This document shows positions 4,896-48,556 of a stretch of 48,556 nucleotides of DNA, piece by piece. Within the stretch, counting starts at the first letter, position 1. Each line of letters opens with the position of its first letter. A program made the position numbers and the translations under genes. The notes below the pieces were generated by a model, which was given only the letters and a program-made list of their open reading frames with translations, was not told where the DNA came from and made no database searches. The DNA comes from a virus: the IMG/VR virus record IMGVR_UViG_3300021057_000005, positions 1 to 48,556 of that record; one strand, given 5' to 3'.

Positions 4896-5246
4896 ATGAG
4901 AGAAATTAAGTTTATGGTTTGGCGCAAATCAACACAAGAGATGTGTATCCCCTCTGATTTGGAACACTTGTTGGAACATTACAATGATAATGAAGAATAC
5001 ATTGCACGGCAATACACAGGGCTAAAAGATAAGAATGAGAAAGAAATTTATGAAGGGGATATAGCTAGCTTTCTTCATAATTACGGGGAAGGTTCTGAAT
5101 ACATGAATAAGTATATAGACGTAGTCCACTATGATACCGATACGGCAGGCTTTGTGTTTGGTAAAGAGGAGTTTACATTTTTAGAGATTTTAGAGGTAGA
5201 AGTAATAGGTAATATCTATGAGAATCCAGAGCTACGGGAGAAATAA
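4896..5246 (+). CDS. YopX-family protein
   Basis: IKFMVW...QYTGLKDKNEKEIYEGDI...VIGNIYENPEL is the YopX signature. Confidence 0.7.
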   Translation: MREIKFMVWRKSTQEMCIPSDLEHLLEHYNDNEEYIARQYTGLKDKNEKEIYEGDIASFLHNYGEGSEYMNKYIDVVHYDTDTAGFVFGKEEFTFLEILEVEVIGNIYENPELREK

Positions 5247-5247
5247 T

Positions 5248-5649
5248 ATGAAAGAGTTCAAGTTTAGGGTTTGGCACAAAAAATTAAAGAAAATGTTTTA
5301 TGACGATGTCGAAATTCATTTCCATGGATCGAGGTGGAGTTATGAAGTGTTTTACCCAATTTTTGATGGGGGACATGAGTGGCTAGATGACTCGTTGTCG
5401 ATACTATTACAATACACAGGATTAAAAGATATGAACGAAAAGGAAATATATGAGGGAGATATATTACAACACGCAATTTATCTAGATCAATATACTAAGG
5501 AACCATATAAATCTGTTGTTCCATCTATAACAGGACATGATTCTGCGGTACAAGGATACGCAGGCGATTATTGGCATTGTGAAGTTATAGGCAATATCTA
5601 TGAAAATCCAGAGCTAGCGGAGGAATATTATGCTAGACATCCACAATAA
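5248..5649 (+). CDS. YopX-family protein (tandem paralog)
   Basis: FKFRVW...QYTGLKDMNEKEIYEGDI...VIGNIYENPEL; ATG after GGGAGAAATAAT. Confidence 0.7.
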   Translation: MKEFKFRVWHKKLKKMFYDDVEIHFHGSRWSYEVFYPIFDGGHEWLDDSLSILLQYTGLKDMNEKEIYEGDILQHAIYLDQYTKEPYKSVVPSITGHDSAVQGYAGDYWHCEVIGNIYENPELAEEYYARHPQ

Positions 5650-5710: not shown

Positions 5711-6139
5711 TCAATCCCAATGAATCTCTACATGCGCCACATCAGCAAACCAGTTTACTAGAGCTGGTTTTTTTTCATCTAATGCTTTCTTATAAATAGC
5801 TTCTCTCTCTGGATGATCCCATATAATCCCACAGCGTAGTCTGCCATTTTCTATCGGTACCTTCTTAGCAGCTTGGTATAAAGCCCACCAGAATGGATGT
5901 ACGTTTGATATATTCCACATATATCGTACATCACAAATATCTGCCGCATTGCCAGATAAGTGATAAGATTTCATGGTCTTACTCACACCACGTCTTACCT
6001 TTTCTTTCTGTTGTTCAAGAGTACGTCTTCCTTCAATTACCTGCGGTTTCCAGCCCTGAGATTCCAAATCAAGTAGTATTTCTCTAACAATAGGCCTAAA
6101 GTCTTCTTCTAAGCTCAAAAATGCTTTGTTTTCTATCAT
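5711..6139 (-). CDS. endolysin, peptidase M15 (VanY / L-Ala-D-Glu peptidase-like)
   Basis: SYHLSGNAADI (H-x3-G-x-A-x-D zinc motif) and DVAHVEI; 142 aa; last gene of the late arm. Confidence 0.7.
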   Translation of the reverse strand: MIENKAFLSLEEDFRPIVREILLDLESQGWKPQVIEGRRTLEQQKEKVRRGVSKTMKSYHLSGNAADICDVRYMWNISNVHPFWWALYQAAKKVPIENGRLRCGIIWDHPEREAIYKKALDEKKPALVNWFADVAHVEIHWD

Positions 6140-6252
6140 AAAATGGCAAATCCTTAATTGGAGGCTTGTGGTGCGTTTATTTTGATCAGGGGTAGGTAAG
6201 GGTATTGGTCACAAAGAGATCATTGAATGGTGGGGCTGTATTGAGGGCAATT

Positions 6253-7149: not shown

Positions 7150-9007
7150 CGTTGCGTTCTCCTGTAGTAGACCAGAGTAAGAGGCCTTTAGTTAAATCTG
7201 AAATGAGTTTAGTACTTCCTGCTCCTTTACCAATGGTTTCGAGCAGTTGTTGGGACGAAGGATTTTTGATTAAAGCAGATAAAGCTTGCACGATCTTAGG
7301 ACCGGCAACTATACCACCAGCAACACCCAAGGCGGTTCCCATAGGCCCTCCAGCAGATCCTAATAAACTACCTAGACTGGCACCAGCAATCTGGCCGCCT
7401 GTCCGCATGGCTGAAGCAGAAACACTGATTTCTTTTAATAGAGTTTTGTTATCATTTAATTCCTTTAATACCTTTTGTACGCCTTGTAAGCGAGCAACGG
7501 ATTGATCAGGTAGAGTAGTTTTAAAGGTATTAATATATTTATTAATATTTTTTAATGCTGTTTGAGTATTGAATTTTTCATTGGTAGTTATGTCGCCCAT
7601 TGATTTAGTTAGGATGTGTTGTTCTGCTAAATTGGCTCCATCATTACCTGTGAATTTCAAAAAGGCTTTCATTTCATCTGGAGACTTCAAGGAACGATCT
7701 AACATGGTTCTGCCAGTTTGTCCGATCGCATTGGTATCGCCTTTAGCAATGGCCTCTGCTAGATCTTTGCCACCGAATTCCTCTAGCGGTTGGACCACTT
7801 TAGAATTAAATTCATTGGCCTGGGCAATTGCTCCACCAGCGCCATTAGCTTCTGCATGCGACTGTAAAGCAGATCTAACTTCAGACTGAATCTTTTTATA
7901 TGCTTTATAAACACTGGGAGTGGCTTCATTACCAGAAAAACTTTTAAATTGTTGAGATATATCTTGCTGTACTGATAAAATATCTTCCGTTGTTTTTGCC
8001 GCTTTTAATTGGTTTTTTATGTCTTTTAAGACGTTTAATTGTTGGCTAGACATAACACTGCCAACATCGTCTAGTGTCTTATTAATTGCGGTTACTGCGG
8101 AACCCATTCTAGGTTTTCCTGGAATCTGTTTGATTACATCATAATTAGTATCGTTCGTTGCTTTTACAGATTCCCATAATTTAGCGGTGCTAGTGGCTGC
8201 CTGTGTATTTGTAGGCACACCTTCTTGAATAGGAGCTATTTTACTTTTGAGCGTGTTTAATTGATCATCGATTGTGTTAGTAACTTTGGATCCTTTTGTT
8301 AAAGAATTTGCACCTGATTTTAATGCTCCACCAATAGCTGATACGCCTACAGGAATAGCAGCACCTAATACAGCACTTGAGTCACGTTCTTCTTGTGTGC
8401 CTGGTGTAGCAGCACCGCCTACGATAGCGCCAGAAAGTGCTTGTGGGATCATGTTAGCTAGCCCTGCGCCAATCTTGCCTGCAGTAGTAGTGCCTTTGAC
8501 TACAGGAGCGATAGAGGCTAGAGCACCTTGTCCTGAGCCTAAGGAAGCAATATTACCCAAAGAACGAGTAAGTGCATACGCTCCTTGAGCAACGGGATTT
8601 GCAGTGATGGCTTTGCCAATCTCGCCTTCTGGTTGAGGACGAATTTGATTATTAAAATCTTCGTTCTCTTTATACCAGTGCTCTGCTTTCGTCTTATCAA
8701 TTGCACCGATATGACTTAAGATAAAAGGTACTGCATCTTGCACTGTTTGAGCGGTATCAACTACTGCATTTGCTGCTCCTCCAATGACGGCTTTCCCAAC
8801 ATTTCCTACGTCTTCTAATAATGAAGGTTGAGCAGGTTCCGTATTGGAACTACCTGGTGCAATTGGTGCAATAGCAGAAGTCGTTGGTGCAATTGGTGCA
8901 TTTAGCTGGGCCAATAAAGCTGGATCGGTTACTTCTTTCATTTCAGAAGCACCATTTAATTGTTTTAAAATTGCTGGATCGGTTACTTCTTTCATTGTTG
9001 ATACCAT
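7139..9007 (-). CDS. large internal virion/ejection protein (putative)
   Basis: 622 aa, Ala/Gly-rich hydrophobic stretches, N-terminal duplicated MKEVTDPA(I/L)L.QLN, APIAP motifs; located in the tail/ejection block. Confidence 0.4.
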   Translation of the reverse strand: MVSTMKEVTDPAILKQLNGASEMKEVTDPALLAQLNAPIAPTTSAIAPIAPGSSNTEPAQPSLLEDVGNVGKAVIGGAANAVVDTAQTVQDAVPFILSHIGAIDKTKAEHWYKENEDFNNQIRPQPEGEIGKAITANPVAQGAYALTRSLGNIASLGSGQGALASIAPVVKGTTTAGKIGAGLANMIPQALSGAIVGGAATPGTQEERDSSAVLGAAIPVGVSAIGGALKSGANSLTKGSKVTNTIDDQLNTLKSKIAPIQEGVPTNTQAATSTAKLWESVKATNDTNYDVIKQIPGKPRMGSAVTAINKTLDDVGSVMSSQQLNVLKDIKNQLKAAKTTEDILSVQQDISQQFKSFSGNEATPSVYKAYKKIQSEVRSALQSHAEANGAGGAIAQANEFNSKVVQPLEEFGGKDLAEAIAKGDTNAIGQTGRTMLDRSLKSPDEMKAFLKFTGNDGANLAEQHILTKSMGDITTNEKFNTQTALKNINKYINTFKTTLPDQSVARLQGVQKVLKELNDNKTLLKEISVSASAMRTGGQIAGASLGSLLGSAGGPMGTALGVAGGIVAGPKIVQALSALIKNPSSQQLLETIGKGAGSTKLISDLTKGLLLWSTTGERNDGR

Positions 9008-10419
9008 TTTCCATCTTTTTGAATATAAGTAGTGCCATTTAATGTTTTTGTAATATTTGATTGACCAGGAGATTGCTCAGCGCCAATTAATTTGAATGTT
9101 TTCGGATTGATTTGTAAATTGGTACTTGCATGCTCTTGCCATGCTTTATCCGCACCTTTTAGATTTTTATTTTTCTCTAAGTAATCTCGCATAAAGGAGG
9201 CCATTTCTCGTTTGCGAATTTCTGACGTTTCCAGCATATTTAATATAAGATCGTTACCTGCTTGGCTATTACGCATACCTGCGCTTGCTTTAGCAAAGGC
9301 TTCCATTTCCTTTTCAGATATAGAACCTTTTGTATCGCGGATTCTATCGAATACGAAATCCATTCCTAATTTATTTAATGATTCGCCGTATTTAGTATTT
9401 GCAAGTTTCACACCTGTCAAGGCTTCAACAGATTGTTGGATTTGCAATTTGGTTGCCCCAAACATGCCAGAAGGAAATTGTTTGTTGGCTTCTCTAAACG
9501 CTTTAACTTGTTGTAAAGTGTTGTCGGTATCCATAACGTCTTCAGATAGTTTCTCCACTTTTTTAATATCCAGGTCCAATAATTTATCTTGGACTTTATT
9601 TTCTGGAAGAACGTTGCCTCGTTCGACGGCTGCTTGCTTGTTTTTCAAGCCAGTTAATTCGGTGACTTCTGCATCTGAAATGCGACCTAATTTTTCTTTT
9701 TGTTCTAATGCGCCTATACGTTGTAGATCCTTTTGTGTAGCAGTACGATCATCTTTCCCACTACGAGAAGCAAAGTCCGCCATACCTTCATAACGCAACA
9801 CGGTTGCTGCCATTGCAAAGTTCTGATCGAATTGTTGTGGAACTAATTTCTGCATTTGTGGAGGTAATAAAGAACGAGATTGTGCCCAGATTTGTTGTTG
9901 CTGAGCTGGATCTTTTGCCATTAATGCGCCTTCTGCTGCTTGGCCTATGATATTAGTTGCTTTCGCATGGTTATCTAATTCAGTGCCTTTTCCAGTGGCT
10001 GTTTTTGCAAATGCTTCTGCTAAAGTATTTTGTACTTGTGCTTTCTTTAATAAATAATCTTGTTGAGCAGATGGATTAATTTTACCAATTGCATCTAGAT
10101 ATACTTGTTCGCCTTTAGCCGCTGCTGCGCGAAGTTGATCTGCATCTAACTTTTGCTGCTTGGCTTGATCCAAGTTTAATTGATTGCCTTCAATGGTTTG
10201 TTGTTGTATTTGTTGTTGTCCAGGAAACAATGCAGCTTGTTGGTCCATTGATTGCTTTGTAGCAGCCATGTTTTGTCGCGTCGCTTGTATTTGTTGTCCT
10301 TGCAACAAGCCTTGCATAATGCCTCCTGACAATGAATCAAGAGAAGAAGGACGTTGTGGAGTTTGGATGATTTGTTGTTGGGGCTGGATTGGAGCCAGTA
10401 TGCCGAAGTTTACTGCCAT
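8992..10419 (-). CDS. Gln-rich coiled-coil internal virion protein (putative)
   Basis: 475 aa, poly-Q-rich N-terminal third, N-terminus MAVNFGILAPIQP. Confidence 0.4.
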   Translation of the reverse strand: MAVNFGILAPIQPQQQIIQTPQRPSSLDSLSGGIMQGLLQGQQIQATRQNMAATKQSMDQQAALFPGQQQIQQQTIEGNQLNLDQAKQQKLDADQLRAAAAKGEQVYLDAIGKINPSAQQDYLLKKAQVQNTLAEAFAKTATGKGTELDNHAKATNIIGQAAEGALMAKDPAQQQQIWAQSRSLLPPQMQKLVPQQFDQNFAMAATVLRYEGMADFASRSGKDDRTATQKDLQRIGALEQKEKLGRISDAEVTELTGLKNKQAAVERGNVLPENKVQDKLLDLDIKKVEKLSEDVMDTDNTLQQVKAFREANKQFPSGMFGATKLQIQQSVEALTGVKLANTKYGESLNKLGMDFVFDRIRDTKGSISEKEMEAFAKASAGMRNSQAGNDLILNMLETSEIRKREMASFMRDYLEKNKNLKGADKAWQEHASTNLQINPKTFKLIGAEQSPGQSNITKTLNGTTYIQKDGKWYQQ

Positions 10420-16601: not shown

Positions 16602-17771
16602 TTATTGATCTCCAAAAAATACTACGCCATTACCTTCGCAATCAATGGCGGCACCAGTCGCCTCATTTATTGTTAATACTCGATACGTAGATACACTGGC
16701 TCCATAAGTAGATTTGGTTGTAATAAATGTACGATCAGATGCACTGGACTGACACAATCCTGCCATGGCATAAGATGTGGAACTGAAATTCGTAGTAAAG
16801 GTGATTGTCGTGTCGCCAGTGGCGTTGTCAGTAAGAGAGGTGACGTTATAGCTTGCATTAATAGAAGTTGCTGTAGTAGTCACAAATCGAACCCATGCTT
16901 TGGCAGCACTTGGATGATAATGCTGTCTACCTGGAGTAACTACCGTAGTAGTGGATGTTGCTGTTTCTTGGTCGCTTTGTGCGGCTGCACCAGTTAACCC
17001 ATTAAAGGAAGTTCCTGTTGCAACGCCAATATCAGGAGTTGTTAATGTGGGAGAAGTTGCAAATACTAATGCACCTGATCCTGTTTCCCCGGTAACGGCA
17101 GATGCTAAGTTTGCAGAAGACGGTGTTGCTAAAAACGTCGCAACTCCTGTACCTAGACCAGATACGCCAGTGCTAATAGGCAGCCCTGTACAACTTGTTA
17201 AAGTGCCGGAAGTTGGCGTACCTAAAATAGGCGTAACTAATGTTGGAGTATTTGCAAATACTGCTGCTCCGGTGCCTGTCTCGTCAGTTAATGCAGCAAT
17301 TAAATTGGCACTAGATGGAGTAGCTAAAAACGTAGCCACATTTGTTCCTAGGCCTGATACACCAGTACTTATAGGAAGTCCTGTACAGCTAGTTAAAGTA
17401 CCTGATTGTGGAGTACCTAGAATTGGCGTAGTAAGAGTAGGAGAGGTGAGAGTTTTATTAGTTAAAGTTTCTGATCCTGCTAACGTTGCTAATGTTCCAG
17501 TAGTAGGAAATGTAACAGTTGTGGTGTTGGTTAAAGTCCCAGTAAACGCGAATGCTCCAGACAATGTAAAGGCACCTGCAATACTAATTGCATTGCCGTT
17601 ATATTGTAGCGCTGTAATATTAACTGCTGCAGAAGATAATTGGAGAGGGCAACTTGTCCCTTCTCCATCTGATACATTACGTAGAGTAGTATCGATACCA
17701 GAATTGCTATTAGAAACTTGTAAAAGATCTTTATAACTATCTGTGATGTATTGACCTGTTAATGTGGCCAT
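16602..17771 (-). CDS. second fiber/spike protein with an internal duplication
   Basis: [32 protein letters not shown]...ETG.GA.VFA..PTL..P.LGTP.SG occurs twice; Thr/Gly/Ala-rich. Confidence 0.5.
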
Positions 17772-27196: not shown

Positions 27197-27670
27197 TCAA
27201 GATTTTGAATTACTTAATAAGTATTGTTTTGCAGATTCTAATATGATTGGAGAATCTTTTAATAAGCCTATGGCCCTGTTGCAGTTATTGCATAATAACC
27301 CACGAATCTGGCCGGTTGTGTGGTCATGATCTACTGCCAATCTTTTTACTGCTCCGCCATTGCTTTGCGATGTTTCTTCATTCAGACAAATGGCACATTT
27401 ATTTTGTTGTTCTTCTGTTAATTTTAAATAATCTTGGTATGAAATATTAAATTTGGATTTTAAATGATAGTGTTTTGTTTTTTCTTTTAATTTTTCTCTA
27501 TTTTTACTCTGCCATAACTTACTTTTTTCAGTGGCGCATACAGAACAGGAGTAATTCGAAACAAGTCTTGGAGCAATATGGCCTCGGCGACATGGTTTGG
27601 TTGATAGATAGTATAAATCCCCTTGTGCTATAGCGGTTTTTCTATTTGTTTTCACTAACGTTCCCATCAA
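27197..27670 (-). CDS. recombination endonuclease VII-type HNH nuclease
   Basis: CAICLNEE...LAVDHDHTTGQIRGLLCNNCNRAIGLLKD is the Endonuclease_7 signature. Confidence 0.7.
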   Translation of the reverse strand: MMGTLVKTNRKTAIAQGDLYYLSTKPCRRGHIAPRLVSNYSCSVCATEKSKLWQSKNREKLKEKTKHYHLKSKFNISYQDYLKLTEEQQNKCAICLNEETSQSNGGAVKRLAVDHDHTTGQIRGLLCNNCNRAIGLLKDSPIILESAKQYLLSNSKS

Positions 27671-28277
27671 AGGAATGAAAGGGAGAAATAACCATCACCC
27701 ATTGACAATGATCCCCTTTGCTAGCATTCCTTCCTATCTTATGGCCAATCCTTATTCGAACACACTTAAGAACACCAAAAAATTTATAAATTTTAATGTA
27801 ATAATATTCAAAATAAGTTTTGCCGTTGCTTGACAACTCTGTATAAAATAATCCAGGAGCATTTCCTGTGCCATCTCCAATATCCGTAGGGATAGTGGAT
27901 AAATCTGCTTCTTTTGCATACCAAGTTGTGGATTTTTGCGAATATGGGAATTCAATTGTGATACCGAGAATCGCGTAACCTAGGTAATTCAATGGGTTCC
28001 TAAATGCCAACCAGCTGTAATGAACCCACAATGTGTCGCCAAATTTACTTAAATAAACCGAGGTATCTCTGCCTACATATAAATCTGCATTATCAAACCA
28101 GCGAAGTAGAACAGGCAGTTTTACACTCCTGGATGAATCACGACTAACTAACACACGATGAATAGGCAAGTATAGTAATAGCAGGACTGCGCCAATGGCT
28201 TGTAATGGAAAAATAACCACTAACAAGATGGCTAAATGTTTTAGAAATCTAAGTATAAATTTGATTATTTCTAACAT
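27642..28277 (-). CDS. membrane protein (hypothetical), first long CDS of the late arm
   Basis: 211 aa, N-terminal TM pair (LAILLVVIFPLQAIGAVLLLLYL), RBS AGGA. Confidence 0.4.
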   Translation of the reverse strand: MLEIIKFILRFLKHLAILLVVIFPLQAIGAVLLLLYLPIHRVLVSRDSSRSVKLPVLLRWFDNADLYVGRDTSVYLSKFGDTLWVHYSWLAFRNPLNYLGYAILGITIEFPYSQKSTTWYAKEADLSTIPTDIGDGTGNAPGLFYTELSSNGKTYFEYYYIKIYKFFGVLKCVRIRIGHKIGRNASKGDHCQWVMVISPFHSFDGNVSENK

Positions 28278-28875
28278 TTGGATTCCTGCGGAATTGGGAA
28301 TAGCTCCTACAGTTACCCACGTAGGCTGGTCACAACTTCAGGAGAATCCTACAGACCTGTTCGATTCTCTTTCTAGCCTGGGGAAGCGTTGTCTGTTTTA
28401 ACAGTGGGCTTTTCCACTAGCTTCCAATACAGGGCAGGTATGTGACACCATTTTCTTCGGGAGAAGAAATTCTTGCTGTCTCTCCAGCTGTCCTTACTTA
28501 GCTTTTGGTTTAGGGAAACTTCGTATCAGAAACCCTGCTAGTTTTTTATAACGACTCACTAGCACATCGACGTTCTATTTACCCAGCAGGGCTTTCACCT
28601 GCGCCTCTATCGTTAGCCTACGGTGCACGAACATGCACTCTGAATCGCGAAGGACTGCGTAGACACCGCATTACTGCACTATGATAGGCTCTTCAATCAG
28701 ACCGGCTCCTCCAGTAAACTGGTGCCTAATTTCGGACTGGTTACCGATGTTGTCCGTCTTTACGAGCTCTGGGTAAAACTAATTTGGGGCAGGACTTAAT
28801 CAAGATAGACGGAGCGATGCGCGCTATCTCTTGCCTAATACCAGCACCGTTGCGGTTACCCCAAAACCTTTATAA
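28278..28875. ncRNA. candidate structured RNA A (GC-enriched, ORF-free, about 600 nt); strand unresolved
   Basis: No credible ORF. G+C is 30/60, 28/60 and 35/60 in the lines starting at 28281, 28341 and 28581, against 24/60 and 18/60 in coding lines 40801 and 44101. Many helices (see findings). Confidence 0.35.
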
Positions 28876-28953
28876 CTATTCGTCTGAAGAAAGTCTGTGT
28901 AATACAATTACTACAACAACAAATGTTGCAACAGCACAAATTACCGTTATCAT
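28876..28953 (-). CDS. 25-aa hydrophobic peptide (hypothetical)
   Basis: MITVICAVATFVVVVIVLHRLSSDE; ATG 2 nt after the stop of the preceding mini-ORF. Confidence 0.25.
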   Translation of the reverse strand: MITVICAVATFVVVVIVLHRLSSDE

Positions 28954-28955
28954 AA

Positions 28956-29066
28956 CTATTTCAATCCGACTTTTTCTAAAACTTTATCTACAACGGGATC
29001 AACTAATTTACTGACTTGTTTTGCTACCACGACTGCGGCTGCGATTACTAAGACTGTTTCTAACAT
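28956..29066 (-). CDS. 36-aa hydrophobic/amphipathic peptide (hypothetical)
   Basis: MLETVLVIAAAVVVAKQVSKLVDPVVDKVLEKVGLK; RBS GAGGT 4 nt upstream of the ATG. Confidence 0.35.
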   Translation of the reverse strand: MLETVLVIAAAVVVAKQVSKLVDPVVDKVLEKVGLK

Positions 29067-29573
29067 AACTACCTCGTTGGTTTATTAATTTTTACGGAGA
29101 ACAATGCTTTTAATCTCCGCATTTTTATAATGGTGGTATGAGGAAGCGTTTTTCCATCAGAACTACGAGGCTCCGCGACATACACGTAAGTGATACTTAC
29201 CTATGTCTTTTATACGCTACCTTTCTATCTCGTGATTCAACCATAAACTGAAGGACTACTTTTATTACGACTGGTGTAGTCCGACCTGCACGACTGCGTA
29301 ATTCAGGAGCGGGGGAAGGGGATTGAGCCCTTCGCTTAAGATAATGGAGGCTATTTTCCCTGGAGAGCTTTGCATACAGCCCGATGACCTATCTCAGCTT
29401 TCGCTTTGACTCGGATGCTCACAACACATCGTCAAGTATCGTTGCCTTATATCCCAGATTACCAAAGTACCCGCATTAAATAATGTACCGATATCGCACC
29501 TCGGCACAGGAGTCGTTGATACTTGGCTGGAGTTATTTTTGTGCCAAGTTAAAGGGGGTGCAACGAAAACTGT
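29067..29573. ncRNA. candidate structured RNA B (GC-enriched, ORF-free, about 500 nt); strand unresolved
   Basis: G+C is 36/60 in the line starting at 29281. Helices include 29177-29207, 29253-29282 and 29309-29335, plus mutually exclusive pairings at 29500-29549. Confidence 0.35.
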
Positions 29574-29759
29574 TTAATTCTTCTTTCTGCGCTCTTTTTG
29601 ATATTTTACTTCGCATTTCTTGCATCTGGAGAAGACGCCAGTAAATTGGTAGTACCTGATAGCTTTGGTGTAAAACTCAGCGGGGCTCGTTTCAGGACAG
29701 GATCGGCACTTAAGGAAGTCTAATGTATTAACTTCGTCGCCTCTCATGTTGTGCCCCAT
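29574..29759 (-). CDS. 61-aa CxxC...CxxC zinc-ribbon protein (hypothetical regulator)
   Basis: C18-x2-C21 ... C46-x2-C49, basic C-terminus KYQKERRKKN; RBS GGGGAGAA; directly downstream of a consensus promoter. Confidence 0.5.
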   Translation of the reverse strand: MGHNMRGDEVNTLDFLKCRSCPETSPAEFYTKAIRYYQFTGVFSRCKKCEVKYQKERRKKN

Positions 29760-29781
29760 AAAAATTCTCCCCTATATTATA

Positions 29782-29810
29782 ATTATATACCACGTTTACT
29801 GATTTGTCAA
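29782..29810 (-). promoter_or_regulatory. consensus sigma70-type promoter with an AT-rich upstream tract
   Basis: On the minus strand: TTGACA (29810-29805), 17-nt spacer, TATAAT (29787-29782). Upstream lies gaaaaatgaaaatattttatataattaatacattttaaa (UP-like). Confidence 0.6.
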
Positions 29811-29829
29811 GTATTCTACGTTTAAAATG

Positions 29830-30331
29830 TATTAATTATATAAAATATTTTCATTTTTCATATCTACGTACACCAAAGTGGCTATTAGCTCATCCAAAAT
29901 GAGGTTGAATCGGGTCAGCACAGCTCCCAGCATTCTGCGGTCTTCTAATAGCAGGTACATATCTGTGTAAATGGGGTTATCTGAGGACGGCATCTAGAAA
30001 TTCTCCAGCATAGAGAATGGGGACATAAAAGTAATAGGGTCCCATATTCAAAAATACCCCCGGGCACCCCCATCGACTGACTCGTAAATACTTATTTCTA
30101 TTGGGCTTATGATATTTAATCATCTGTTCACACCAATACAATCAATTACTTAGTTATGTACTGTGACAGAATTGTGCCAATTGGATGAAAATTAAACGTT
30201 TGTGGTTAATTAATGTGCTAGTCTGTAGGGTAACTTGGGGTAGTTGGTGATCGTTTAACCACGAGCTTCCAATTGCGTTTAAATGGTATAAAAGTGCTTG
30301 GGTATATCTTTATTGCTATGGAATGGTTCAG
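29830..30331. ncRNA. candidate structured RNA C (GC-enriched, ORF-free, about 500 nt); strand unresolved
   Basis: G+C is 31/60 in the line starting at 29881. 8-bp helix 29881-88/29945-52 enclosing stacked hairpins; 12-bp helix 30198-30209/30255-30266. Confidence 0.3.
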
Positions 30332-30553: not shown

Positions 30554-30655
30554 TGTTATGGCCTCATTGAGTCTACTACGGTAGGATTATATTAAAAATC
30601 ATTGCTTTGGGTGTGATAAATACTATTCTAATAGGATTATTGCTTCTATTTGCTG

Positions 30656-30668
30656 TGGTCTATGACCA
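30656..30668. promoter_or_regulatory. palindromic operator candidate TGGTC-TAT-GACCA (copy 1)
   Basis: Perfect 5-3-5 palindrome; an identical copy lies at 30743-30755. Confidence 0.5.
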
Positions 30669-30675
30669 TTCAATT

Positions 30676-30729
30676 ATGACTACAAACATGTATTCATTAT
30701 TTTACAAAATGATTACAAATATGTATTCA
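30676..30729 (+). repeat. two 21-nt direct repeats ATGA(C/T)TACAAA(C/T)ATGTATTCA
   Basis: 30676-30696 and 30709-30729 are identical at 19 of 21 positions and are bracketed by the two palindromes. Confidence 0.5.
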
Positions 30730-30742
30730 GAACTATAATGAA

Positions 30743-30755
30743 TGGTCTATGACCA
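30743..30755. promoter_or_regulatory. palindromic operator candidate TGGTC-TAT-GACCA (copy 2; extends to ATGGTCTATGACCAT 30742-30756)
   Basis: Perfect palindrome immediately downstream of a TATAAT (30734-30739). Confidence 0.5.
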
Positions 30756-31158
30756 TATGAATAACTATATAATTAATATAATATTTATTTAATAAAGTTA
30801 AACTAGAGCTTATTGGGTGATATATATTATCTATTCTATATATCCAACAATACGATCCAGTACAATTGCATGTGTCCTAGCTACGCTTTATTCCTGTTAC
30901 AGTCTTGAAGTCCATGACTAGTTGCGTAAAACATACTTGAAGGGATATTAATCGATTATCAGGTCAGGTGGCATGGTACCTGGTATTTGTTTATACCTGT
31001 CACTTTATGACAGTATCACCCCATGCTTTATTACCTATTTATCTTATCCTTGCTATCCTCTAGTGTCACATTCCTTAAGAATGCCGGTATCGTAGTAGTG
31101 TTCCTACGTCCAAATAGGATTAATATCCAAGATACAAAAACTGTATCCCTATATATTA

Positions 31159-31195
31159 TATATATCACATATTTAAAATATTTCCACTTTTCTAC
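31159..31195 (-). promoter_or_regulatory. 37-nt conserved promoter-like element, copy Y (minus orientation)
   Basis: The minus strand reads GTAGAAAAGTGGAAATATTTTAAATATGTGATATATA. The first 24 nt are identical to 33962-33985 and 33 of 37 nt match overall. Confidence 0.45.
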
Positions 31196-31427
31196 TTTTA
31201 AATATCTAATATCTTATTGATTAACATAAAAATAAATATTTTCACTAGTATTGCACTTTTTTACACACCCACTACCTATACAATACCTATAACACATAAA
31301 TTGCACTATGAGGCTGTATTGCGGTTTAAATGGCATCTATTTAGCCTAGCTTAACTAGAATATTCCATATCTGCTTAAACTGTAGCATTATATTTCATTA
31401 TGTATATCCACTTGCATATACACTGTC

Positions 31428-31485: not shown

Positions 31486-31590
31486 ATGAACGATATCGAT
31501 ATACATACCGTGTTACTAGGACTAACAGATGATGAGTTAATAAATTTAATAAACCAATGTGTTGATTTGATATGTGACCGATTACTTTAA
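31486..31590 (+). CDS. 34-aa hypothetical protein (first early ORF)
   Basis: RBS GAGAGGAGAAT then ATG; MNDIDIHTVLLGLTDDELINLINQCVDLICDRLL. Confidence 0.4.
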   Translation: MNDIDIHTVLLGLTDDELINLINQCVDLICDRLL

Positions 31591-31605
31591 CGAGGAGTAA
31601 ATGTC

Positions 31606-31854
31606 ATGGGTAATACAAGAGATATTATAGATCGAATAAGTGTACAGCAAGAACTACTTCAGAAAGATGTCATAGAACTTGGGAAGCAATATATCCAAGG
31701 AATGCCTGAAGATGTTTTTAATGAAAAATCCAAAAAATTAAGCGAACGATTCCACATGATTCGGGAAGTTGTAACTGATTTGAAAAGAATAGCGGAAAGA
31801 AATACATCTACGTCTCATGATGAAGAACCAACAACGCCAAGAGTGAGGAGATAA
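31606..31854 (+). CDS. hypothetical protein
   Basis: Track ORF with RBS GAGGAG. Confidence 0.55.
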   Translation: MGNTRDIIDRISVQQELLQKDVIELGKQYIQGMPEDVFNEKSKKLSERFHMIREVVTDLKRIAERNTSTSHDEEPTTPRVRR

Positions 31855-31859
31855 CTACT

Positions 31860-32210
31860 ATGATAAAACAAATTAAACAGTTCTTTAAAGGGTTATACAA
31901 AATGATTGCTAGTTGTTTTGTTACTAAAGAGGAGAGAGAAATAAAAGCAATAGCAAATATAAGTAAAGCGAACAACATGTATATGATGATGCATGAGGCA
32001 GATAGAAAAGAAAAAGAGGCAAGAGAGAACATTGAGCAAAATTCATGCAGTTTTGTGAAAGAGCTTACGCGCAAGGAGAGCAGTAATGAATTCCGTCGTG
32101 GTCATAACTGCAAGATGTATTCGCATTCGGCTAATCGCGGTAAATTCGGTTGGGACGAAATTGAAAATATTGCATCAGGTGAAATATTTAGACCAAAACG
32201 AGGAGGCTAA
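31860..32210 (+). CDS. hypothetical protein (N-terminus paralogous to 32213..32731)
   Basis: RBS GAGGAG; MIKQIKQFFKGLYKMIASCF... compared with MIEAIKQFGSWLWDGVKRFLNFFCCC... Confidence 0.55.
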   Translation: MIKQIKQFFKGLYKMIASCFVTKEEREIKAIANISKANNMYMMMHEADRKEKEARENIEQNSCSFVKELTRKESSNEFRRGHNCKMYSHSANRGKFGWDEIENIASGEIFRPKRGG

Positions 32211-32212
32211 TA

Positions 32213-32731
32213 ATGATAGAAGCAATTAAACAATTTGGTAGCTGGTTGTGGGACGGAGTAAAGCGATTCTTAAATTTCTTTTGCTGTTGTAACTTTATGA
32301 CAAAGCAAAAAGAAACGAAAGAATATGCTATAGACACTTTTGCTGAATTAAATAATCAGGAGATGATGCGAGAAGAAGCCCGTGTCAAAACAGACTCACT
32401 AGTGTCAAGACATTGTCTAAGGAACGACATTGATTTAGCGTTGCATGATGCAGCAGTTATGGCATATAAAAGCGGTATAGGAGGCTACAGCCATATTTTT
32501 AGGGCTCGGTATAATGAGTATTATAAGAGGAAAGAAATTGACCAATTTGAACGAGAAATTATAGGAGGTTTCCCATATGTTATTCAGAGAAAGTCTCGTC
32601 GTGAAGATATATTGGCAGCATTAGTGCTACAGCCAGTTCGTAAATCACCTAAACCAAAGAAGGAGGAAGTAGCATCACCAAGAGTAACGAAAGGGTCACT
32701 ATCTCAATTAAGAATGGGGAGGCAGTTATGA
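32213..32731 (+). CDS. hypothetical protein (paralog of the preceding ORF)
   Basis: RBS GAGGAGG; shares the N-terminal amphipathic/Cys segment followed by a KE-rich helix. Confidence 0.55.
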   Translation: MIEAIKQFGSWLWDGVKRFLNFFCCCNFMTKQKETKEYAIDTFAELNNQEMMREEARVKTDSLVSRHCLRNDIDLALHDAAVMAYKSGIGGYSHIFRARYNEYYKRKEIDQFEREIIGGFPYVIQRKSRREDILAALVLQPVRKSPKPKKEEVASPRVTKGSLSQLRMGRQL

Positions 32732-32919
32732 ATAAGCTATTAGTTATCATGGTATCACTATTGTTAACAATGCCTGTACAAGCAGCCACTACGTATTGTA
32801 CCGAATCTGGCAATATGCAACTTTGTCAAACCTATGAAGATGATGGATCTTCAACGCAACATGTTGTAACGGACTATGGCAATACGAGCATAATCAATGA
32901 ATACAAATATAAATTTTAG
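32728..32919 (+). CDS. small secreted protein (hypothetical)
   Basis: Signal-peptide-like MNKLLVIMVSLLLTMPVQA; ATGA coupling. Confidence 0.5.
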   Translation: MNKLLVIMVSLLLTMPVQAATTYCTESGNMQLCQTYEDDGSSTQHVVTDYGNTSIINEYKYKF

Positions 32920-33262
32920 TTCTACAGAGTGGCAGGTGATAATAGCTGCCTATGCATATGAAGTATTAGATGATCCTATCATGAGTGACAGTACATATGA
33001 TTTTTTATGTACCTTCATTGTGGATACAGCTACGATAAAAGACTTTAATCCTTCTACAGGGATGTGGATTAAGGATCTAATCAAAGATAATAGTGAGTTA
33101 GTGTTGCTATTAGATAATGCTGTCTATAACAGTAAGCGATTAGGAGAAGGTGCAAGAGCAGAGCTATTAATCCCTATGCAATTTATTACTGATTCTAGTT
33201 TATCTTATCTAGAAGATAATCAGTTAAACAGTTGGATAGAGAAACATAAACTAAAGCTTTAA
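32897..33262 (+). CDS. hypothetical protein
   Basis: 121-aa track ORF. Confidence 0.45.
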   Translation: MNTNINFSSTEWQVIIAAYAYEVLDDPIMSDSTYDFLCTFIVDTATIKDFNPSTGMWIKDLIKDNSELVLLLDNAVYNSKRLGEGARAELLIPMQFITDSSLSYLEDNQLNSWIEKHKLKL

Positions 33263-33278
33263 GTGTCCTGTTAAGCGA

Positions 33279-33879: not shown

Positions 33880-33961
33880 TGCAATCAATGTGTATTCATT
33901 CATGTGAATAATTATTCAACAAATAATTAAAGAAAAGTGGAAATAAATTAAAATATTTAAC

Positions 33962-33998
33962 GTAGAAAAGTGGAAATATTTTAAACATGTTATATAAT
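33962..33998 (+). promoter_or_regulatory. 37-nt conserved promoter-like element, copy X (ends in TATAAT 33993-33998)
   Basis: GTAGAAAAGTGGAAATATTTTAAACATGTTATATAAT; a partial third copy AGAAAAGTGGAAATA lies at 33931-33945. Confidence 0.45.
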
Positions 33999-34004
33999 TA
34001 GTAT

Positions 34005-34247
34005 ATGACAAGGTTGAATGAGGCAAGTGTCATGTCAACATTATATGACGATATCATAGAGTTCGAGAAAGAAACAGGAAGAGATTGGGTAGGGATTCAA
34101 TATGAAAATGGCAACATATCTATATTAGATCATACAAGCATTGCAATAGTAGTTATGTCGAACAAACAAAAGTACATACAAATAAGAATAGGATATCAAG
34201 ATGGCAACAAGCAGTACCCATTCTTTATCAATATACCGATTAAATAG
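34005..34247 (+). CDS. hypothetical protein (start uncertain: 34005 would be leaderless; an alternative ATG follows a GAGG)
   Basis: The track ORF's ATG lies 7 nt after the TATAAT of element X. An internal Met (MSTLYDD) has GAGG 8 nt upstream. Confidence 0.45.
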   Translation: MTRLNEASVMSTLYDDIIEFEKETGRDWVGIQYENGNISILDHTSIAIVVMSNKQKYIQIRIGYQDGNKQYPFFINIPIK

Positions 34248-48058: not shown

Positions 48059-48556
48059 ATGGTATTTATAGAAAATGGCGATAGAACTGAAGATATTTAT
48101 TCTAGTCTGCTTCGAGACAGGATTATTTTCATTGGTGAAGAAATCACTCCGGAATTAGCCAACGAAGTAGTTGGTCAACTGTTGTTATTAGAAATACAAG
48201 ACAAAAATAAAGATATAAAAATATATATTAATTCTCCAGGAGGAGATATTACTTCTGGATTTGCAATATATGACACCATGCAATTCATTAAACCAAAAGT
48301 ACATACCGTTTGCATGGGCATGGCAGCAAGTATGGCAGCGATATTGCTCGCAGCAGGAGAAAAAGGCTGCCGTAAGGCGTTGCCTCATGCAGAAATTATG
48401 ATTCATCAACCTTCTGGCGGTTTTGACGGAACTACAACGGATGTTCTTATTTATGCAGGCATGTTGCAAAGATGCAAAGAGACTAGCATCAATGTCCTAT
48501 CAAAACATACGAAACAAAGCAAAAAGAAGGTTTCTGCGGATTTAGAAAGAGATTAT
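48059..48556 (+). CDS. clpP: ClpP protease subunit, 5' part (open at the window end; completed by nt 128-193 after circularisation, 187 aa total)
   Basis: Not in the ORF track because there is no in-window stop. Translation MVFIENGDRTEDIYSSLLRDRIIFIGEEI...YINSPGGDITSGFAIYDTM...CMGMAASMAAILLAAG...AEIMIHQPSGG carries the ClpP Ser/His motifs. Confidence 0.85.
   Translation, partial: MVFIENGDRTEDIYSSLLRDRIIFIGEEITPELANEVVGQLLLLEIQDKNKDIKIYINSPGGDITSGFAIYDTMQFIKPKVHTVCMGMAASMAAILLAAGEKGCRKALPHAEIMIHQPSGGFDGTTTDVLIYAGMLQRCKETSINVLSKHTKQSKKKVSADLERDY
48430..48556. repeat. 127-bp exact terminal direct repeat, copy 2
   Basis: Identical to nt 1-127. Confidence 0.95.

Follow-up and report, generated by a model that had tools for sequence, protein, structure and literature searches.

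The gene-free block and its surroundings

We have examined here a gene-free block of 598 nucleotides (nt) at positions 28278-28875 of the IMG/VR virus record IMGVR_UViG_3300021057_000005; the window, by which we mean the whole 48,556-nt stretch analysed, is complete and represents a closed phage genome of ~48.4 kb. A long late operon runs on the minus strand from 28277 down to ~5711 and encodes DUF7338, endonuclease VII, a holin, a terminase, an SU10-type portal and the capsid, and the early operon begins on the plus strand near 31486, so that an interval of ~3.5 kb with only a few small genes lies between the two. Leftward from a promoter at 29810-29782 this interval contains a 61-amino acid (aa) zinc-ribbon open reading frame (ORF), ~500 nt without ORFs, two mini-ORFs of 36 and 25 aa, the block itself, and then the DUF7338 gene. 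All of the genes that flank the block are on the minus strand, and no strong terminator is predicted between the promoter and the block. An earlier note on this DNA, made from the letters alone, had put the block forward as a candidate for one large structured RNA, with several indications of plus sense. Comparison with the one relative that has DNA in common across this zone (a 78-kb JGI contig, referred to as L005) points elsewhere: the block appears not to be one large RNA, but a 598-nt intercistronic leader of the minus-strand late transcript with two unrelated parts, a conserved element that we call the A-core, and a distal spacer. The features of the locus are as follows.

27642-28277, minus strand: DUF7338 gene, the first long late gene; the block adjoins its ATG.
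28278-28875, no strand assigned: ORF-free GC-rich block, an apparent composite of A-core and distal spacer, forming the intercistronic leader from the mini-ORFs to the first long late gene.
28299-28471, minus strand: A-core, a 173-nt conserved non-coding element with a predicted multi-helix fold, ending 21 nt upstream of the DUF7338 start codon.
28472-28875, minus strand: distal spacer, 404 nt, GC 48.0%, lineage-specific, with no structure signal, homologue or coding potential detected.
28876-28953, minus strand: hydrophobic mini-ORF of 25 aa, no homologue found.
28956-29066, minus strand: hydrophobic, membrane-type mini-gene of 36 aa, conserved in another phage lineage and called as a gene in the related locus L010.
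29351-29442, minus strand: B-core, a sharply bounded 92-nt non-coding element with 98.9% identity to L005 7660-7751, located upstream of the A-core in the window and in L005 alike.
29782-29810, minus strand: promoter with a perfect match to the sigma-70 consensus (TTGACA-17-TATAAT), directed towards the leader and late operon.

Composition and folding of the block

The G+C counts that first drew attention to the block are exact (30, 28 and 35 of 60 in three of its lines, against 24 and 18 in two coding lines), and at 47.7% it has the highest G+C of all 598-nt windows of the genome (mean 38.0 +/- 3.3%); coding stretches near 10.1-10.4 kb reach up to 46.7%. The helices that the earlier note had listed by hand mostly exist, as 10 of the 11 pair in the way described, the exception being 28533-39/28584-90, which is off register as written. 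Their number is nonetheless close to chance, because, with G-U pairs allowed, stems of 7 bp or more that form within 120 nt number 41 in the block and 39.7 +/- 7.5 in dinucleotide shuffles. Stems of at least 7 bp built from Watson-Crick pairs only number six, as compared with 2.3 +/- 1.5 in the shuffles (p ~0.025). The minimum free energy (MFE) z-scores against dinucleotide shuffles are given below.

28278-28875, whole block: plus strand -0.28, minus strand -2.11.
28299-28471, A-core: minus strand -2.07, plus strand -1.86.
28472-28875, distal spacer: minus strand +0.19, plus strand +0.38.

Folding better than that of shuffled sequence is thus seen for the block on the minus strand and not on the plus strand, and the whole of the minus-strand signal is confined to 28299-28471, with which a sliding 160-nt scan of both strands concurs. 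The strongest local folding signal nearby lies outside the block, at 28120-28279 on the minus strand (z -3.4 in a 160-nt window), and covers the 5' part of the DUF7338 gene.

No known RNA family accounts for the block. Rfam 15 at gathering thresholds returned no match anywhere in the window, the 6S, riboswitch and small-ribozyme families included, and the models for GOLLD, ROOL, OLE, HEARO, introns, RNase P and tmRNA do not match the block even at E values up to 10, so that the large phage-associated RNAs which the earlier note had named as candidates find no support. Relaxed to E up to 10 across 27900-30000, the same search gave only three chance-level matches to eukaryotic miRNA, snoRNA and sRNA families, all outside the A-core; in L005 4400-8700 it gave nothing, and in seven related loci, at gathering thresholds, only tRNAs in two of them (L013 and L016). 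The Rfam tRNA model RF00005 does not match the A-core. ARAGORN with default settings reported no tRNA or tmRNA genes in the window, and relaxed to 85% it produced one doubtful call outside the block (30581-30664) and no tRNA remnants within it.

Relatives and mosaicism

The phage group to which this genome belongs is rare, poorly sampled and environmental. The DUF7338 protein, whose family is unmentioned in the literature, has 23 relatives among 5.8 billion proteins, an early 116-aa protein was found by protein search only in this lineage and one other, and DUF7338 and the early cassette proteins taken together have only about two dozen relatives in that collection. Genomic contexts were taken for seven DUF7338 proteins and 23 loci were fetched for nucleotide comparison. 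A single lineage, consisting of L005 and its ENA and Logan copies (L006 and L007), has DNA in common with the window across the ORF-poor zone; the intergenic zones of other related phages are as ORF-poor, and unrelated in sequence.

The window and L005 are mosaics of each other, as their early block (window 31513-33273, L005 2771-4533) is 99.15% identical at the nucleotide level, while their late genes are ~72% identical or replaced; the DUF7338 proteins are 62% identical, and the terminases come from different families. These differences in identity point to a recent exchange of the early module between the two phages. Small genes of the early-late interval are not common to both, as judged by tblastn of the L005 intergenic proteins, and the interval has only short, sharp-edged modules in common: the early promoter region, an AT-rich module at 30618-30783, a weak 78-nt match, the B-core and the A-core, the last of which is 88.5% identical to L005 7850-8020. 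The two cores are the shared modules of the late leader, where their order and orientation are kept and the first late gene differs. In L005 the B-core and A-core are ~100 nt apart, inside a 736-nt ORF-free leader of 46% GC that follows a strong intrinsic terminator (7480-7497) and precedes the different first late gene. In the window they are 879 nt apart, and the additional DNA includes both mini-ORFs as well as the 404-nt distal spacer, which has no counterpart in L005.

Further homologues of the block were not found by blastn against GenBank phages, by exact or gapped pattern scans of IMG/VR, or by scans of GTDB genomes, and a loop-anchored pattern run against JGI metagenomes recovered the L005 contig alone. 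With nhmmer, blastn and tblastx the 23 fetched loci gave matches only in L005, L006, L007, L014 and L015, which are one lineage, and a covariance model of the A-core run over 15 loci gained no new member. The distal spacer has no homologue in the fetched loci by the same three programs, nor in IMG/VR, JGI metagenomes, GTDB genomes or GenBank phages. The earlier note had looked to homologues as a check on its large RNA; the A-core alone has them, in one lineage, and the rest of the block is without a counterpart. A common 15-mer had pointed to a further copy of the A-core near 30260, which was rejected, as the alignment has no real similarity.

The other shared modules differ in character. The AT-rich module is 87% identical to L005 4728-4894 and contains a 33-nt tandem repeat (30676-30741) and a 14-nt palindrome, TGGTCTATGACCAT, that occurs twice (at 30656 and 30743); in these respects it looks like the operator sites of an early/late control region. 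The B-core has no thermodynamic support for a structure, with MFE z-scores of 0.23 and -0.39. A helix between its non-homologous flanks that would close the B-core is striking in MFE folds, and was discarded as its duplex energy is no better than that of shuffled flanks (p 0.30 and 0.55). Just upstream of the B-core on the minus strand, at 29475-29507, a terminator-like hairpin is visible by eye (GUGCCGA-9 nt-UCGGUAC, then AUUAUUUAAU), which the terminator scanner passed over because its loop is longer than 8 nt, and the analogous place in L005 is occupied by the much stronger terminator at 7480-7497.

Consensus fold of the A-core

The RNAalifold consensus of the two sequences has 46 pairs in seven helices, none of them broken over the 20 columns that differ. 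The helices, with the coordinates of H2 to H6 (28328-28448) derived from the alignment of the window with L005, are predicted as follows.

H1, 28452-28469, minus strand: UUUCUUC/GAAGAAA hairpin with the loop UCCC (GGGA on the plus strand), the 5' hairpin of the element; invariant in both phages.
H2, 28438-28448 with 28328-28336, minus strand: long-range helix of 9 bp, closing the junction that holds H3 to H6.
H3, 28433-35/28376-78, minus strand: helix inside the H2 junction.
H4, 28420-25/28382-87, minus strand: GGAAGC/GCUUCC, enclosing the hairpin H5.
H5, 28414-17/28404-07, minus strand: GUGG/CCAC hairpin with a U-A to C-G change, the one compensatory change in the A-core.
H6, 28363-69/28342-48, minus strand: helix in the H2 junction.
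H7, 28306-28325, minus strand: CCUAC(GU)/(AC)GUAGG hairpin, the 3' end of the element; invariant.

Two of the helices that had been found by hand, 28342-48/28363-69 and 28452-58/28463-69, are conserved in L005. The most prominent one, of 13 bp, is not, as four of the nine pairs of 28379-87/28408-16 are lost there together with its CTGT/ACAG cap, and the nested GGAAGC/GCTTCC and GTGG/CCAC helices are kept instead. This bears on the argument for plus sense, because the G-U pairs that would form on the plus strand only (28382-83 with 28412-13) belong to that non-conserved helix. The pair 28369/28342 changes from G-C to G-U on the minus strand and so stays paired, whereas on the plus strand the change produces an A-C mismatch.

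Two sequences are too few for covariation, the consensus fold avoids broken pairs by construction, and in MFE folds of the single sequences the changes show no clear avoidance of stems. For this reason the structure conservation index (SCI) was set against the values for artificial sequence pairs with an equal number of changes, placed either as random substitutions or by shifting the observed spacing pattern along the sequence. The minus-strand SCI of 0.895 is reached by none of 300 pairs with random substitutions (0.695 +/- 0.074) and by none of 167 with shifted patterns, which preserve clustering (0.732 +/- 0.060). The plus-strand SCI is lower, at 0.832, and is reached by 5% and 9% of the respective controls, which is a second point in favor of the minus strand. 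A DUF7338 coding segment gives no signal in the same test (49% and 31% of controls reach the observed value), nor does part of the early block (34% and 77%). The SCI result for the A-core, which differs between the strands, is the best evidence here for a probable RNA fold on the sense strand of the late genes; the MFE z-score of the minus-strand A-core is -1.76 in L005, alongside the -2.07 seen in the window.

Coding potential

The absence of genes noted between the DUF7338 ATG and the mini-ORFs is borne out, as all six frames of 28278-28875 contain multiple stops, and these are of mixed type in every frame, which makes a recoded gene implausible. Pfam searches of the stop-free segments gave no match, and neither Pfam, tblastx nor the protein database revealed a conserved protein when the block was translated, so that its non-coding character stands. 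The tblastx identity of the A-core is similar in each of the six frames (82-94%), which argues for conservation of nucleotides and not of protein. The idea of a pseudogene was tried and rejected, both the Pfam search of stop-free segments and tblastn with the L005 intergenic proteins being negative. The sole ORF in common is on the plus strand over the most conserved 80 nt (window 28195-28401, 68 aa; L005 8046-7900, 48 aa), and the two translations have the peptide IAPTVTHVGWSQLQ(E/K)NPTDLFDSLSS in common. Its changes are one synonymous as against ~5 non-synonymous, those of the variable part being non-synonymous only, and none of the 5.8 billion proteins has even three 5-residue words in common with the 68-aa product.

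Plausible explanations for the block

We favor, tentatively and with somewhat less than even confidence, a composite leader in which a lineage-specific GC-rich spacer adjoins a conserved module of structured RNA (173 nt, minus strand) that acts within the late transcript or is processed out of it. The distal 28472-28875 would then be part of an ~800-nt insertion relative to the sister lineage, one that also carries the two mini-ORFs, and nothing marks this part as a functional RNA. The A-core is conserved with sharp edges, its substitutions preserve the structure, it has a preference for the minus strand, and it is non-coding; as a portable module it would comprise hairpins at its 5' and 3' ends and, between them, the long-range helix of 9 bp that closes the multi-helix junction. 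It would be transcribed within the late-operon leader from the upstream promoters, and two roles are plausible. It may be an operon-wide cis element, at which the transcript is processed or stabilised or an elongation or antitermination factor of the phage acts. Alternatively, it may be an excised small stable RNA, like the tRNA genes that occupy the same slot in related phages. What is left of the large structured RNA is therefore one third of the block, 28299-28471, which behaves as a conserved structured RNA; the size of ~600 nt fails, as the distal 404 nt have neither signal nor homologue.

Several observations weigh against this composite-leader explanation. There are only two independent sequences, too few for statistical covariation (a pair-shuffle control was uninformative, 229/500), and the consensus fold is judged on the same two sequences from which it was built. 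With the two sequences folded separately, paired positions are not significantly poorer in substitutions (p 0.34 and 0.017), and the MFE z-scores are modest and alike on both strands. The SCI test is not specific to RNA, as the AT-rich operator-like module gives a mild, strand-symmetric signal (2.4% and 7.3% of controls), which indicates that the test also responds to conserved DNA palindromes, although the result for the A-core is stronger and differs between strands. The observation that the GGGA loop forms a GNRA tetraloop only on the plus strand is real, the loop is invariant, and this one point still favors plus sense. The A-core of L005 is directly adjoined, on the antisense strand, by a hairpin that resembles a terminator and is followed by a T-run (7846-7823). 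Finally, recent recombination, of which the 99% identity of the early block is a sign, could account for high identity without selection.

The most serious alternative, which we nevertheless consider unlikely, is that no RNA function is involved, and that the cores are recombination patches or DNA-level regulatory sites travelling with the early module (a late-promoter region, for example, or sites bound by a regulator that is encoded early), with the rest of the block being inert GC-rich foreign filler. These phages exchange DNA, the B-core is identical at a level matching that of the early block, and the edges of homology are sharp. Structural signal is lacking from both the B-core and the distal spacer, the AT-rich module is conserved in a similar manner to the cores, and the equally ORF-poor intergenic zones of related phages are unrelated in sequence. 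However, the A-core, at 88.5% identity, has 20 differences of which none disrupts the common fold, and this is unlikely for neutral DNA given that none of the 300 and none of the 167 controls match it. Moreover, its signal differs between strands, which is not expected of a site in double-stranded DNA, and no sigma-70-like promoter is present within either the A-core or the B-core.

Less probable still is a model in which the A-core is a separate plus-strand small RNA of ~175-235 nt, antisense to the late leader and regulating the late genes by antisense pairing, whose 3' end would be the conserved UUUCUUC-GGGA-GAAGAAA hairpin or the next one. In L005 the A-core is bracketed by an antisense promoter-like site (8085-8056, with a TG-extended -10) and by the abutting hairpin, which has 9 bp before its T-run; a weak plus-strand promoter-like site is also present in the window (28148-28176), and the GNRA loop, the plus-strand MFE z of -1.86 and the plus-strand SCI, matched by 5-9% of controls, are consistent with such an RNA. 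The promoter-like sites, however, have 9 of 12 matches and are no commoner than in shuffled sequence, they lie outside the conserved segment and so are not themselves conserved, and the window has no plus-strand terminator after the A-core. One substitution breaks a plus-strand pair (G-C to A-C) that remains paired on the minus strand, and structure conservation is the weaker on the plus strand.

The proposal that a single plus-strand RNA, non-coding and structured, spans all ~600 nt in antisense to the late operon is largely refuted, and we regard it as very improbable. It draws on the lack of ORFs, the G+C maximum, the mild enrichment of Watson-Crick stems and the GNRA loop, but the plus strand folds no better than shuffled sequence either over the block or over the distal spacer, two thirds of the block are missing from the only relative, no Rfam family matches, the principal helix is broken in L005, the G-U pairs and the SCI speak for the minus strand, and a convincing promoter or terminator is lacking on the plus strand of the window. 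Least credible of all is a small plus-strand protein encoded over the most conserved 80 nt, since, although the frame is open in both phages across the common stretch, the N-termini are unrelated, the ORF of the window would run antisense across the beginning of DUF7338, the variable part changes only non-synonymously with a shifted stop position, conservation runs 50-70 nt past both stop codons, and no database protein matches.

Relationship to known phage RNAs

The position of the A-core suggests a comparison with tRNA genes. The related locus L016 has a tRNA-Met (CAT) gene at 9914-9987 on the sense strand, ending 14 nt before the DUF7338 ATG, and L013 has tRNA-Met and tRNA-Tyr genes (6030-6104 and 6111-6194), also on the sense strand and just after the DUF7338 gene, in both cases within locally GC-enriched, ORF-free DNA. 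The end of the A-core is 21 nt upstream of that start codon in the window, and the slot thus appears to accommodate compact structured RNAs transcribed together with the late genes. The tRNA genes resemble the A-core in this slot, in strand, in being GC-enriched compact units with sharp edges, and in being variably present between phages; the A-core is nonetheless not a tRNA according to ARAGORN and Rfam, is ~173 nt long with another layout of helices, and its processing is hypothetical. The stable RNAs C and D of phage T4 are examples of small stable phage RNAs that are co-transcribed.

The gene downstream of the A-core is DUF7338 in the window and, in L005, one for a 109-aa protein 229 nt away. 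The element is thus not tied to one downstream gene, which argues against a gene-specific translational switch and in favor of an operon-level cis element or an autonomous RNA. Among cis-acting RNAs of this sort are the antitermination and leader RNAs of phages, such as putL and putR of HK022 and the boxB of the lambda nut sites; put RNAs consist of two stem-loops that together measure ~70 nt, and boxB is a hairpin of 15 nt. Like these, the A-core would be a structured leader RNA (as predicted here) between a strong promoter and a long late operon, indifferent to the identity of the first gene and co-inherited with an early regulatory module, but it matches them neither in sequence nor in structure. 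A put-like RNA would be expected to bind RNA polymerase and to be situated between a promoter and the terminators that it suppresses. Both cores are upstream of the long late operon; in L005 the one strong predicted terminator (7480-7497) precedes them and does not follow them. Since the cores are retained together with a near-identical early cassette they could be targets of a factor encoded there; the annotation of the early proteins includes nothing recognisable as an antiterminator or RNA-binding protein.

GOLLD and ROOL are roughly 600-800 nt long. They resemble the block in that it is rich in GC within an AT-rich phage genome, lacks ORFs and lies close to small RNA genes, and they differ from it in that no covariance model matches, its conserved part is 173 nt only, and its other 404 nt are neither conserved nor structured. 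Both are large, ornate, phage-associated RNAs (Rfam; PMC12286853).

The A-core matches no known family and, if real, joins the broad class of phage leader RNAs and small structured RNAs. That it constitutes, possibly together with the B-core, an undescribed portable RNA module, either the target of a regulator from the shared early cassette that activates the late operon or a new small stable RNA in the tRNA slot, is a more specific proposal to which we give a rather low probability. If the A-core is a functional sense RNA, it would be an unclassified structured motif controlling, or riding on, the late operon of poorly sampled environmental phages, and also an example of a non-coding RNA module retained as a unit in phage mosaic recombination. 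The main value of the analysis is a negative one, in that a GC-rich, ORF-free island with many hand-found helices is not a large ornate RNA, and only comparison with the relative revealed which third of the block, and which strand, merits attention.

Other features of the genome

The 36-aa mini-ORF at 28956-29066 is a genuine and conserved gene; its homologue MLDLVVAVAVIVVVAKLVNKLVDKVLGILGL (31 aa) follows the DUF7338 gene in two further loci (L008 and L009), where ~200 nt of GC-rich non-coding DNA come after it. The 61-aa ORF behind the perfect promoter (29574-29759, minus strand) has a weak resemblance to the N-terminal zinc-ribbon part of endonuclease VII and HNH proteins, and the full-length endonuclease VII gene is at 27197-27670. 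The window has identical 127-nt ends (1-127 and 48430-48556), the result of an overlap in a circular assembly or else a repeat at the genome termini. Within the gene at 16602-17771, which is related to a 470-aa protein of L005, a tandem duplication of 195 nt (73% identity) occupies 17034-17423. Repeats of 54-57 nt (83-84% identity; 5010-5255 and 5410-5637) link the adjacent ORFs 4896-5246 and 5218-5649, which are apparent paralogues, and a 65-nt inverted repeat (80% complementary; 31151-31215 and 33942-34006), with its arms ~2.7 kb apart, flanks part of the early region.

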